Shown: positions 3,343-6,527, counted from the first letter of the stretch. The stretch: DNA of 32,000 nucleotides from Candidatus Methylomirabilis limnetica (GCF_003044035.1 NZ_NVQC01000028.1:64168-96167), one strand, 5' to 3'. Program-made: numbers and translations. Notes: generated by a model from the letters alone, not told the origin.

Positions 3343-4415
3343 GCGGCGATGAGATTCGCGAACTCATAGCTGACGGCTCGGCCACCGACCTGCGCCTGGA
3401 CCGCTACCTCTCTACCGCGACAGGGCTCCCACGATCACAGATCCAGCGCCTCATCAAAGCCGACCGGGTGCTGGTCGATGGTCGCCACCCAAAGGCGAGC
3501 GCCACGGCTCACCCGGGCCAGCACATCAGCCTCTCTATCCCTCCGCCACAGCCGTCCACCCTCACACCCGAACCGATTCCCCTCGACATCCTGTACGAAG
3601 ATACTGACATTCTGGTCCTGAATAAGTCGGCTGGGCTTGTCGTGCACCCCGCCCCCGGGCATCAGACCGGGACGCTGGTCCACGCCATCCTGCATCACTG
3701 TCCGGATTTACCCGGGATCGGCGAGGAACGACGGCCAGGGATCGTTCACCGGCTCGACAAAGAGACCTCTGGGGTGATGGTCGTGGCTAAAACCGATACG
3801 GCCATGGCCTCGCTCGCCACACAATTTAAAGGACGTCGAGTGAAGAAGACCTACATCGCGCTGGTGCATGGCGAGGTCAAGCAGCCGGAGGGGAAAATCG
3901 AGGCCGACATCGGCCGTCACGAACGGGATCGAAAGCGGATGGCGGTGTGCACACGCAAAGGTCGGGAGGCGGTGACCATCTACCGGGTGATGAAGCGCCT
4001 CAATGGCTCCACACTGCTACAGCTCCAGCCACACACCGGCAGAACCCACCAGATCCGGGTCCACCTGTCCGCGATCGGACACCCGGTGGTGGGCGATAAG
4101 CTATATGGGGGACGAAGGGAAAGGAAATGGCGAATGGAGAGTGGAGAGTGGAGAGTGGAGGCGGAGCGACACCTCCTGCATGCCTGGAAACTCGGTCTGT
4201 TCCACCCGAGGACTGATGAGTGGATGGAGTTTGAAGCCCCGCTGCCGCTGGACTTCACAAGCTGGCTTCACGCAGAACCATCGACGGGAACCACCCCGCT
4301 CGGATCCCCTCCCGCCAGCGGTTCTTCCGGGCACCTCGCACCCCGCACTTCGCACCGTTCACGGTTTCTCCACCGTCACGATTCTGGTGGAGCCACACCG
4401 CAGGATCTTTCCTAG
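3339..4415 (+). CDS. rluD: RluA-family 23S rRNA pseudouridine synthase (RluD-like)
   Basis: S4-like N-terminus and catalytic HRLDKETSGVMVVAK motif. ATGA start/stop overlap with lspA. The last ~50 codons are a low-complexity P/S/G/R tail, and a heptamer array is embedded at 4124-4165. Confidence 0.85.
   Translation: MSGDEIRELIADGSATDLRLDRYLSTATGLPRSQIQRLIKADRVLVDGRHPKASATAHPGQHISLSIPPPQPSTLTPEPIPLDILYEDTDILVLNKSAGLVVHPAPGHQTGTLVHAILHHCPDLPGIGEERRPGIVHRLDKETSGVMVVAKTDTAMASLATQFKGRRVKKTYIALVHGEVKQPEGKIEADIGRHERDRKRMAVCTRKGREAVTIYRVMKRLNGSTLLQLQPHTGRTHQIRVHLSAIGHPVVGDKLYGGRRERKWRMESGEWRVEAERHLLHAWKLGLFHPRTDEWMEFEAPLPLDFTSWLHAEPSTGTTPLGSPPASGSSGHLAPRTSHRSRFLHRHDSGGATPQDLS
4124..4165 (+). repeat. 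Six phased heptamers (GAAATGG CGAATGG AGAGTGG x3 AGGCGGA) inside rluD
   Basis: Read directly. Three units are perfect and three degenerate. The array encodes KWRMESGEWRVEAE. Confidence 0.8.
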
Positions 4416-4928
4416 TGACAGGTCGAGTGCCATCACGCGAAGGTCCGCACTCCAATAGCACTCGGGGTCCTTGCAAGGACAAGGCCTGACAACTAAGCCA
4501 TTGATCGTCGGTTCTATAGGGGCGGAATGTTCAGTAAAAGCCCCAACCGCTGCCGCGTAGTCGGCGCGATTGGCGGCGCACCATAACTGCTAGTCCCCGT
4601 TCGAATCGATACAGGCTCAGCTAAAGAGACACCGCGATTCGAGCCAACGGCCAGTGACGTTCTCGGCCTTCCGACTGACTACAACATCCTTAGTCCATCG
4701 AGAGGCGAGACAATTTGCTCGCGGTTTGAAGGTTCACTACGAGCGGCGGGTTGTCACTTACTCACCTGCCAACCGCTGCAACATGGCGACTTTCCCCTAT
4801 CAGGCAGAGAAGAACTCCGGCGGTGTAGCAGTTTTATTGGAGAGGTACCCCAACCTTCAGCTTGCTGAGGCGTTTCTACGACGATTTTATGAGATTGCGT
4901 GATCCTGAAGCTGCATCTACTGGAACAA

Positions 4929-5021
4929 CTAGGCCATGAACGAAAGTACCATAGCAACCGTCACGAAGAGCAACAAACCACCAGCCGCAATCCACAGCAA
5001 TATTGTATCGCCACCATCCAT
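4929..5021 (-). CDS. Small hydrophobic protein, 30 aa (MDGGDTILLWIAAGGLLLFVTVAMVLSFMA)
   Basis: ATG start with AAGGGGGA 5 nt upstream. Tandem paralog of 5038..5127, with mostly synonymous or conservative differences. One predicted TM helix. Below the ORF-track size cutoff. Confidence 0.5.
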   Translation of the reverse strand: MDGGDTILLWIAAGGLLLFVTVAMVLSFMA

Positions 5022-5037
5022 TGAAGTCCCCCTTAGT

Positions 5038-5127
5038 TTAGATAAACGAAATCACCATAGCAACCGTCACGAAGGTCAACAAGCCACCAGCCGCAAGCCA
5101 CAACAGTATCGTATCACCTCGATCCAC
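5038..5127 (-). CDS. Small hydrophobic protein, 29 aa (VDRGDTILLWLAAGGLLTFVTVAMVISFI, GTG start)
   Basis: GTG start with AAAGGGGG 6 nt upstream. Stops 16 nt before the SD/ATG of the downstream paralog. Confidence 0.45.
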   Translation of the reverse strand: MDRGDTILLWLAAGGLLTFVTVAMVISFI

Positions 5128-5201
5128 TGAAGCCCCCTTTATTTTACTGGTTAGTGATTACCCCGGTCATTCCACAACATCCACCGCCAGATGTGTTTCG
5201 G

Positions 5202-5230
5202 ATTGTATCCTACAGAGGTCAACCTTGCAA
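5202..5230 (-). promoter_or_regulatory. Sigma70-like promoter TTGCAA-N17-TACAAT for the mini-ORF pair
   Basis: The hexamers and the 17-nt spacer were counted on the minus strand, about 70 nt upstream of the GTG at 5127. Confidence 0.35.
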
Positions 5231-5907
5231 CTATCTATGAAGAACCGGTCTCGTAACGAGTATAGCAACGACGGAGCCACCCTACCAGCGTAGTATAACA
5301 TCCCGCAGTTCAGAAACCTAACGAAAGCTTTGCCGCATCGGCCCACACCATTCTTCCCGGAACCCGTAAGGACGGCAGCTCGCAACCCCGCTTTTTTTGC
5401 TGCCATGAGCCTTTGTTCCATGCAGATCAATCTTAGGTAGATCTTCTCTGTGTGCCTGATTGGAGCCGACGGCCAACGCCAACGTAGAAGTCGATATGTC
5501 CTTCGATTAAGAGCAGTCCGGAACTCTACTCTCTGACATGCAAACTTCGTGAAGAAAGTTAACTGAGGTAGAACCTATTGTCAAGACAAAAATGCAGTAT
5601 CTGGACAGGGCGATGTGACGTCCCATCCACGCTCTCTCGTTCGCCTAACAAGGGCTCTCTGGCGTGGTTGACGAACGCCTCAAAGACCGCGCCAGGGAAG
5701 GGGGGTTCCTCGCACCTTTTGGGGTGGTTTACTGGCCCGAGCAGGCGCACCGGGAGCAATGGAAAGAAGGAATCCCCTGAGCACCGCTGACTAGAACTCC
5801 TCGGAATGGGCATCAGTGAGCCGGCGAGTATGCCAATGTCAATATAGGGATCGCTCGTACCACTCGCCGCAGAAAACGGGTACTATTTTAGAGTGGTTAC
5901 TCACCCA

Positions 5908-5936
5908 TTGACACGATACCCGGAGAGAGTTATATC
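5908..5936 (+). promoter_or_regulatory. Sigma70-like promoter TTGACA-N17-TATATC upstream of the usp gene
   Basis: Consensus -35 and near-consensus -10 with 17-nt spacing. It would give a ~115-nt leader. Confidence 0.35.
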
Positions 5937-6056
5937 TTGAACATGCCCCAAGATGCTCAGCGTAAGAGGCGCACCAGGGGTCGTCTGGACGGTCTCCACA
6001 ATGTCAGCGTAGCGGATAGCAACATAACCCTGCTTGACGCGAGGAGGTATCGTGCC

Positions 6057-6527
6057 ATGTTGCCAAAATATCAGAAACTGCTGGTGACTACAGATCTCTC
6101 ACCCCTCGGAAACACCGCAGTCCTCCATGCCTATGCTATCCTGGCAGAGCGTGGCGGCACTGTCATCCTTTGGTGTGCGGTTGACGTGTCAGGGATTCCG
6201 GACCCGCTCTACGCTCAGCCCACGCCTGGGGAGACGCTCGCTGAGGAGCGGACGGAGATCCGGGAAAAGCTGTTCTCCTCACTGGAAGCACTTGTGCCTG
6301 AGGAGGTTCGTGCAGAGGGAAAGGTGACCACGAAGATACGGGTAGTGGAGGTCTCCGGACCGATCCATGATACGATATGCCAAGAGGCTGCAGCTCAGGA
6401 GGTGGACCTCATCGTGATGGCATCCCATGGCTATTCCGGGATGAAGCACCTGCTCCTGGGCTCAGTGGCAGAGCATGTGGTGCGGTCAGCCGATCGCCCC
6501 GTTCTCATTATCCGCGGCCGAGAGTGA
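6057..6527 (+). CDS. Universal stress protein (UspA family)
   Basis: KLLVTTDLSPLG ... DLIVMASHGYSGMKHLLLGSVAEHVVRSADRPVLIIR. ATG at 6057 is preceded by GAGGAGG. The ORF-track start at 5937 is a TTG and gives an implausible extension. Confidence 0.85.
   Translation: MLPKYQKLLVTTDLSPLGNTAVLHAYAILAERGGTVILWCAVDVSGIPDPLYAQPTPGETLAEERTEIREKLFSSLEALVPEEVRAEGKVTTKIRVVEVSGPIHDTICQEAAAQEVDLIVMASHGYSGMKHLLLGSVAEHVVRSADRPVLIIRGRE

Follow-up and report, generated by a model that had tools for sequence, protein, structure and literature searches.

The enterobacterial proteins YohP, MgtS, AcrZ, KdpF and CydX, of 27-49 amino acids (aa), bind larger membrane proteins and many of them are stress-responsive, and the uspA-uspB pair of E. 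coli combines a universal stress protein (USP) gene with a divergent gene for a small membrane protein, UspB, of 111 aa and two transmembrane segments. Peptides of 26-43 aa are furthermore encoded by the dual-function RNAs RNAIII (delta-haemolysin), SgrS (SgrT) and SR1 (SR1P), and the toxin mRNAs of hok/sok and aapA/isoA are known for their 5'-3' fold-back interactions. Here we compare these systems with a locus in a 32,000-nucleotide (nt) stretch of DNA from Candidatus Methylomirabilis limnetica (GCF_003044035.1 NZ_NVQC01000028.1:64168-96167), hereafter the window, in which an original prediction made from the sequence alone had pointed to two hydrophobic mini open reading frames (mini-ORFs), ORF A and ORF B, in tandem on the minus strand. 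They lie between the genes for RluD and a USP. What we find is a conserved peptide gene, duplicated here, with conserved sequence reaching about 0.85-1.1 kilobases (kb) around it.

The peptides encoded by this gene are like the YohP, MgtS, AcrZ, KdpF and CydX class in size, in having a single transmembrane helix and in belonging to a kind of protein that is often overlooked. KdpF and CydX are however encoded inside the operon of their partner, whereas the gene described here belongs to a separate unit with very long untranslated regions (UTRs), and there is no homology between them. As in uspA-uspB, the membrane protein gene of the window is adjacent and divergent to a UspA-family gene, but the peptide is unrelated in sequence to UspB and most Methylomirabilis units are convergent with their USP gene.

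The mini-ORFs and their conservation

ORF B (5127 to 5038, minus strand) opens with GTG and encodes a predicted single-pass membrane peptide of 29 aa (MDRGDTILLWLAAGGLLTFVTVAMVISFI), and its paralog ORF A (5021 to 4929, minus strand) opens with ATG and encodes 30 aa (MDGGDTILLWIAAGGLLLFVTVAMVLSFMA). Each is preceded on the same strand by the Shine-Dalgarno site AAGGGGG, which stands at 5139-5133 and 5 nt ahead of the GTG in the case of ORF B and at 5034-5028 and 6 nt ahead of the ATG in that of ORF A, and the two together form a 106-nt tandem duplication (4939-5146; Tandem Repeats Finder period 106, 2.0 copies, 84% matches, score 304). ORFs, Shine-Dalgarno sites and tandem arrangement are as originally described. 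The repeat unit contains only the last ~20 nt ahead of the start codon, including the Shine-Dalgarno site, and the ORF, and the stop codon of ORF B arose at the duplication junction. Since the repeat holds nothing beyond Shine-Dalgarno site and ORF, and since the Shine-Dalgarno site of ORF A begins 4 nt past the ORF B stop codon, the two ORFs would be carried on one and the same mRNA. A codon-by-codon comparison reproduced the count given in the original prediction, with 12 differing sense codons of which seven are synonymous and five are replacements (R/G, L/I, T/L, I/L and I/M), and the paralogs have a synonymous divergence (dS) of 0.51. Exact copies of ORF A are present in four other contigs, and ORF B is listed as a hypothetical protein by metagenome pipelines.

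The same mini-ORF is found unbroken in 11 lineages, far more than chance would give; these supply 13 gene copies, of which 12 differ in nucleotide sequence, and their loci were recovered by using the peptides and the USP protein of the neighbouring gene as queries. These lineages comprise the window with four near-identical contigs (L008-L011), a related population in one metagenome (L006/L007), Candidatus Methylomirabilota metagenome-assembled genomes (L002/L003, L004 and L005), M. lanthanidiphila together with three further Methylomirabilis/NC10 assemblies and a metagenome contig (L012-L017, L021 and L022), and one distant contig (L001). All but one of the 11 are Candidatus Methylomirabilis or close relatives, the nearest named organism being Candidatus Methylomirabilis lanthanidiphila (USP 82% identical), and in the four NCBI genome assemblies examined, which include that of M. 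lanthanidiphila, the peptide gene is present but uncalled. The M. lanthanidiphila locus lies at about 40.9-42.4 kb of NSJN01000003.1 (L012 4595-5483). All 13 copies are complete, open with ATG or GTG, keep frame and stop over 29-32 codons, and have, 5-8 nt ahead of the start, a Shine-Dalgarno site of the GGGAGG or AGGGGG type. The variable alignment columns fall at codon positions 1, 2 and 3 in numbers of 14, 2 and 19, so that second positions vary in only 2 of 28, and the summed ratio of nonsynonymous to synonymous changes (pN/pS) is 0.15 in the peptide frame; for the other two sense frames it is 0.84 and 4.6, and for the three antisense frames 0.63, 0.41 and 10.

Compared with its L007 ortholog, ORF B shows synonymous differences only (nonsynonymous divergence, dN, 0; dS 0.34), and for ORF A the corresponding dN/dS is 0.24. 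The divergence between ORF A and ORF B and that of the L007 orthologs therefore place the duplication before the split between the lineages of the window and of L007, both paralogs having been maintained intact since. The frame conservation and dN/dS comparison with relatives that had been named as a check on the original claim of purifying selection are accordingly in its favor, the frame being kept in all copies and the low pN/pS being confined to the sense frame. The coding nature of ORF A and ORF B may be regarded as established as far as sequence comparison allows.

The window also contains a plus-strand ORF of 64 aa (4936-5130), antisense to the mini-ORFs, which had been dismissed as their shadow. 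This judgement stands, since its length falls to 33 aa in single-copy relatives, and it is furthermore in agreement with the pN/pS of its frame, 0.41 as against 0.15 for the peptide frame. Two sets of called ORFs were likewise rejected as genes: a convergent '82-aa' ORF on the plus strand (4654-4902) and the '77/79/87-aa' ORFs placed by gene callers in the leader are not conserved and are absent from L012-type loci, and the middle parts of both change frame between the window and L007. In the comparison of loci no other small ORF of the ~1-kb unit was found to be conserved. A HMMER search of 1.84 billion representatives returned ORF B itself as the sole match, and a word-index search with the peptides returned one 32-aa homolog.

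Across copies the peptide has 29-32 residues and an acidic N-terminus (MDRGD), after which positions 7-29 are hydrophobic and without charge, no residue being charged after position 5, and form a helix of ~23 residues that includes an AAGG patch. A C-terminal tail is lacking, the ends being SFI, SFM, SFMA, SFMS, SFMG or SFLSTG with one Phe only, and none of the copies has the polar, charged or aromatic C-terminal cluster that serves as a heuristic in the work of Fozo et al. 2010 (PMC2887945). The described architecture of an acidic N-terminus followed by one hydrophobic helix therefore holds, and with it the resemblance to small membrane proteins. Profile searches of the peptides against Pfam, PADLOC, PHROGs and PDB gave no matches at E<=10, and NCBIfam gave nothing significant, its lone match to TIGR01751 being spurious (11 bits, E 0.11). 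No known family, including Hok, Ldr/Fst, Ibs, TisB, ShoB, Zor, KdpF and CydX, gave a significant profile match, which agrees with the original statement that homology to a named family could not be asserted. A likeness of the C-terminal [IL]SF to that of Ibs toxins was dropped as a sign of homology, as there is no Ibs match in Pfam at E<=10, and a viral-contig scan of the window gave nothing. Judged by these comparisons, the product appears to be a single-pass membrane peptide of no known family, nearly confined to Candidatus Methylomirabilis (NC10) and close relatives.

The peptide gene is present in single copy in eight of the 11 lineages, and tandem duplication is seen only in the lineage of the window, with two copies, and in L006/L007, with two copies and a decayed third, middle unit. 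This middle unit (L007 3418-3500, L006 67-149), carried by both strain variants of the one metagenome, has suffered a 26-nt deletion by which the peptide frame lost its start codon and its first nine codons, leaving the Shine-Dalgarno site followed by a GTG that opens an out-of-frame, hydrophilic ORF of 22 codons (MARGGRLVDLRDGRYGDFVYLN). It should also be mentioned that contigs of two assemblies made independently are broken off within the peptide gene at one and the same sequence (TGTGGCT...), namely at the end of L003 and the start of L002 and at the start of L006, that L002 and L006 both start at the sequence forming the deletion junction of the middle unit, and that the overlap between L003 and L002 is exactly 120 nt. 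These breaks suggest assembly-graph branching from copy-number or strain heterogeneity of the array within populations.

The unit surrounding the peptide genes

Upstream of the mini-ORFs lies a distal promoter (5594-5556, minus strand) with the consensus motif CATTTTTnnCTTGACAAT, in which an A/T-rich CATTTTT (5594-5588) precedes a perfect -35 hexamer TTGACA (5584-5579), a 17-nt spacer and the -10 hexamer TAACTT (5561-5556; TAnnTT in the consensus), and from which transcription is predicted to start near 5549. The window has a single occurrence of the motif CATTTTTNNCTTGACAAT (0 expected by chance), and this motif is found, exact and exactly once, in every peptide-bearing locus having upstream sequence, except L001, where it is absent. 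The site is also the only promoter-like match common to all nine lineages scanned, scoring 9-10 of 12 (10 of 12 in L012 and L007), and the motif begins 450-468 nt ahead of the first start codon in eight lineages; in L021 this distance is 311 nt and in L016 it is 151 nt.

The promoter of the original prediction, TTGCAA-N17-TACAAT, is indeed present at 5230-5202 on the minus strand, but this proximal site passes the hexamer scan in only four of the nine lineages (window, L007, L004 and L022; L003, outside the scan, has the same site as L022). It was discarded as a conserved promoter, being degenerate in L005, L012 and L014 and removed with its whole segment in L016 and L021, and it lies within leader helices 15-17, in a hairpin showing compensatory changes. 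No antisense promoter or terminator conserved across the nine lineages was found, and a weak antisense TTGACT-17-GATCAT/GATCGT site near position -45 is present in three of them.

A strong intrinsic terminator closes the unit in L012, L014, L004 and L005, that of L012 (4626-4602) having an 11-bp stem with nine G-C pairs and a T-run. This hairpin (AGCCGGGCGC...GCGCCCGGCT and T-run) is weaker in L007 and has been lost from the window by a deletion near 4620-4640 (minus strand), so that a weak terminator-like site at 4499-4483 (minus strand) is the only one at the end of the window's unit, on which RluD, with its stop codon at 4415, converges. Between the USP stop codon and the terminator of the unit in L012 (4471-4602) no plus-strand terminator-like site was found and the hairpin has no T-run on the USP strand, and read-through from the USP gene could therefore be antisense to the 3' UTR of the peptide mRNA in L012, and equivalently in L004, L005 and L014.

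Between the predicted transcription start and ORF B extends an inferred 5' leader of ~420 nt (5549-5128, minus strand), which is modular, probably structured and homologous in both genomic arrangements. RNAalifold on seven leaders gave 97 pairs, with 91% of cells paired, and 21 pairs changed on both sides, as compared with 12.4+-2.3 in shuffles and 3-10 in slid controls, which is modest covariation support. A sub-domain of the leader (predicted helices 13-17; 5160-5291, minus strand) is dispensable in some lineages, since L016 is without all of it and L021 is without the interior of helices 14-17; the latter has kept helix 13, which closes the sub-domain, and a stem of 6 bp with a GGAU cap, and this stem is reproduced by its own minimum-energy fold.

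Two blocks immediately flanking the coding region are better conserved than the rest of the non-coding sequence. The block ahead of the Shine-Dalgarno site (5140-5160, minus strand; TAATCACTAACCAGTAAAAT) contains a CTAACCA retained even in the most distant locus, L001, and the block at and after the stop codon (4883-4933, ~55 nt, minus strand; CCTAGTTGTTCCAGTAGATGCAGCTTCAGGATCACGCAATCTCATAAAATC) leads into an inferred long 3' UTR (4483-4928, minus strand), which is homologous to those of the relatives and measures ~300-400 nt in all locus types. Between the two arrangement types the identity is 82-88% in the ORF, 76% in the 38 columns before the start and 77.5% in the first ~59 columns after the stop, as opposed to 46-62% in the rest of the leader and 36-47% in the distal 3' UTR.

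In the full-length consensus fold, positions 5159-5150 of the first block (AAUCACUAAC) pair with positions 4933-4924 of the second (CCUAGUUGUU) in a predicted long-range helix of 10 bp that encloses the ORFs. Over ten lineages 90.6% of its cells pair, as against 8-38% in slid controls, and in L016 one C-G has become U-A, a double change that also alters the stop codon from UAG to UAA. When the 5' UTR and the 3' block were folded separately, their consensus structures were only weak, and in the 3' UTR fold net covariation was confined to the terminator. The strong Shine-Dalgarno site shows no clear sequestration, and the stability of the mRNA is nothing out of the ordinary. A match to a known structured non-coding RNA, which had been named among the results that would count against the mini-ORFs, did not appear, as Rfam 15 gave none at gathering score in the whole window and at E<=1 only two chance snoRNA matches in 4350-6100. 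No tRNA or tmRNA genes were found in the window.

Because promoter, leader and 3' UTR are homologous among the loci and no other conserved ORF is present, the ~1.6-kb gap between RluD and USP appears to be largely one mostly non-coding unit, spanning ~0.85-1.1 kb of which ~10-20% is coding. Read in this way, the ORFs would not form a free-standing mini-operon with a nearby promoter but would constitute the middle of a conserved promoter-leader-ORF-3' UTR element. In the window 930 nt separate them from the start of USP and 514 nt from the stop of RluD, with similar distances in the relatives.

The USP gene (6057-6527, plus strand; UspA family, 156 aa, Pfam Usp E 2e-29) is the only conserved neighbour and lies within ~1 kb of the unit in 10 of the 11 lineages. 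The unit is upstream of and divergent from USP in the window, L007 and L010, and downstream and convergent in L002, L004, L005, L012-L017, L021 and L022, while its other flank varies between DUF948/YtxH/inositol monophosphatase/CstA, an alpha/beta-hydrolase, an ABM protein and RluD. Three genomes with USP orthologs 66-72% identical to that of the window (M. limnetica-type L018/L019, L020 and L023) have no peptide unit. No exporter, immunity or modification gene was identified beside the unit in any context, and L021 has an ABC-transporter-type gene ~1 kb off.

USP has a conserved promoter-like site of its own (TTGACA-17-TATATC, window 5908-5936, plus strand), followed by a well conserved 5' UTR of ~120 nt that is also found in USP orthologs without a peptide unit (L018 and L020). 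The ~370-nt spacer between this promoter and the distal promoter of the unit (window 5595-5960) is common only to the closest relatives, L007-L011; elsewhere it is without homologs, and it contains neither a conserved ORF nor a genuine Rfam match. In relatives the flanks of the USP locus (L012-L015 1100-2800; L018 600-830 and 7700-8100) hold variable genes of toxin-antitoxin or defence type (DUF433/DUF5615-PIN, AbiJ_NTD4, BrnT/BrnA and Unstab_antitox), and the neighbourhood of USP seems to be a variable region. Contig L004 (DATMXF010000169.1) is labelled 'Patescibacteria group bacterium', and with USP DNA 85% identical to that of the window and the Methylomirabilis gene order of CstA, inositol monophosphatase, YtxH, DUF948, peptide unit and USP it is probably mis-binned.

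Possible functions and significance

Taking ORF A and ORF B as genuine genes for a new single-pass membrane peptide inside the conserved ~0.85-1.1-kb unit, we think it somewhat more probable than not that this peptide is a stress-associated modulator rather than one half of a toxin-antisense pair. The distal, sigma-70-type promoter (5594-5556) would then drive one long RNA across the unit, and the models of the leader and of the helix pairing the block ahead of the Shine-Dalgarno site with the stop-codon region are consistent with post-transcriptional control of peptide synthesis by these elements. The peptide is predicted to insert into the cytoplasmic membrane and, as a small membrane protein associated with stress, may there bind a larger partner or modulate it. 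Several observations weigh against this interpretation. The long-range helix has one double change only and is equalled by 49 of 500 shuffles, in folding energy neither the leader nor the whole mRNA surpasses shuffled sequence (z +1.48, +1.17 and -0.59), and the leader structure and its covariation count come from the same alignment, the structure shifting in part when a different sequence set is used. Furthermore, the peptide gene of L001 follows a luciferase-like monooxygenase gene and no USP is found in the ~500 nt of contig downstream, and the linkage to USP elsewhere could be inherited synteny, since all the genomes are related.

An alternative, in our judgement unlikely, is a toxin-antitoxin system of type I or a hok- or AapA-like fold-back toxin, in which a membrane-damaging peptide would be made from an mRNA held inactive by its long leader and a 5'-3' helix and repressed by an undetected antisense or trans-acting small RNA (sRNA). 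By a tandem-repeat and intergenic search Fozo et al. 2010 found the type I toxins Ibs/Sib, Ldr/Rdl and ZorO/OrzO, which at ~19-35 aa share with the present peptides the one hydrophobic helix, the escape from annotation, the location in long intergenic regions, sometimes in tandem, and the long 5' UTR (PMC2887945). The peptides described here, hydrophobic and with a single transmembrane helix, fall under the <70 aa of type I toxins, and their tandem copies in a long intergenic region far from the flanking genes agree with the criteria of that study (PMC2887945). The variable copy number with a decayed third unit, the patchy presence among close relatives with a differing position relative to USP, and the weak antisense site near -45 in three of nine lineages are likewise in line with a toxin, and the conserved 3' block of ~55 nt might serve as an antisense promoter or as the target of an antisense RNA. 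Against this, neither an antisense sRNA gene nor an antisense promoter or terminator conserved across the nine lineages was detected, the peptides show no homology in Pfam or NCBIfam to Hok, Ldr/Fst, Ibs, TisB, ShoB, Zor or others, and their C-terminus has no polar or charged cluster. The frequent tandem duplication of type I toxin loci is furthermore a weak argument here, for whereas ibs/sib, ldr/rdl and zor/orz are duplicated as whole toxin-sRNA modules, the repeat here covers Shine-Dalgarno site and ORF only, on one mRNA with one promoter, and most of the sampled genomes have a single copy tied to one USP gene. As in hok/sok and aapA/isoA, the predicted helix joins the region upstream of the Shine-Dalgarno site to that of the stop codon and encloses the ORF, but here it has little covariation behind it, the mRNA runs 300-450 nt past the helix, the strong Shine-Dalgarno site is not clearly sequestered in an mRNA of ordinary stability, and neither a Sok- or IsoA-like antisense RNA nor homology was found. 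We regard it as doubtful, to much the same degree, that the unit is an NC10-specific RNA-peptide module, either a fold-back-controlled toxin of a new family or a large dual-function RNA whose peptide cooperates with USP; if this were true, the conserved blocks flanking the ORF, which are predicted to pair, would be a translational switch.

Less probable still is that the RNA is the main product, a new large structured or dual-function RNA of ~0.85-1.1 kb to which the mini-ORF would be an accessory in the manner of RNAIII/hld or SgrS/SgrT. Like RNAIII, SgrS and SR1 the transcript would be long and would combine conserved, probably structured non-coding parts with a peptide, and coding sequence makes up only ~10-20% of the unit, covariation is seen in the leader, from which sub-domains have been lost in modular fashion, the promoter is perfectly conserved and the terminator strong in relatives, and the flanking non-coding blocks, at 76-78% identity against 82-88% for the ORF, can be counted as equally conserved. 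Unlike in those RNAs, however, the non-coding parts taken together are less conserved than the ORF, which is the best conserved part and diverges as protein-coding sequence does; most of the leader and the distal 3' UTR diverge fast (36-62% identity between arrangement types), L016 and L001 are without most or all of the leader, Rfam gave no match beyond chance even at E<=1, and the folding z-scores are not significant. Exported or secreted peptides, whether leaderless bacteriocins, peptides resembling phenol-soluble modulins or precursors of modified peptides, are in our opinion very improbable. Such peptides are often encoded by small genes in tandem, and tandem small genes, each with its own Shine-Dalgarno site on one transcript, do resemble operons of the psm-alpha or aureocin type, but the helices of phenol-soluble modulins and leaderless bacteriocins are amphipathic and usually cationic, whereas the absence of charge after position 5 gives the present peptide the look of a membrane anchor; in addition, no exporter, immunity or modification gene was identified beside the unit, L021 having an ABC-transporter-type gene ~1 kb away, and most lineages have a single copy. 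It is equally hard to believe that the ORFs are non-functional and owe their conservation to a gene on the other strand or to an element acting as RNA or DNA. The ORFs are indeed very short and nucleotide conservation is high across the region, but the substitutions are periodic (2 of 28 second positions as against 19 third positions variable), pN/pS is far lower in the sense frame than in any other, the length of the opposite-strand ORF varies, and start, Shine-Dalgarno site and stop are kept in 13 of 13 copies.

Methylomirabilis (NC10) bacteria carry out nitrite-dependent methane oxidation and are known only from enrichment cultures. To our knowledge essentially no small proteins or regulatory RNAs have been described from them, and literature searches on small proteins or sRNAs of Methylomirabilis found nothing. 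An intergenic hydrophobic mini-protein is in itself a well-known phenomenon, and the finding is useful rather than surprising. The natural variants of the gene, with one copy, two copies, or two copies and a remnant, constitute a small system for following the duplication and decay of a mini-protein gene, and for Methylomirabilis the locus adds a conserved small-protein family and fills a seemingly empty intergenic region of ~1.6 kb with a defined unit.

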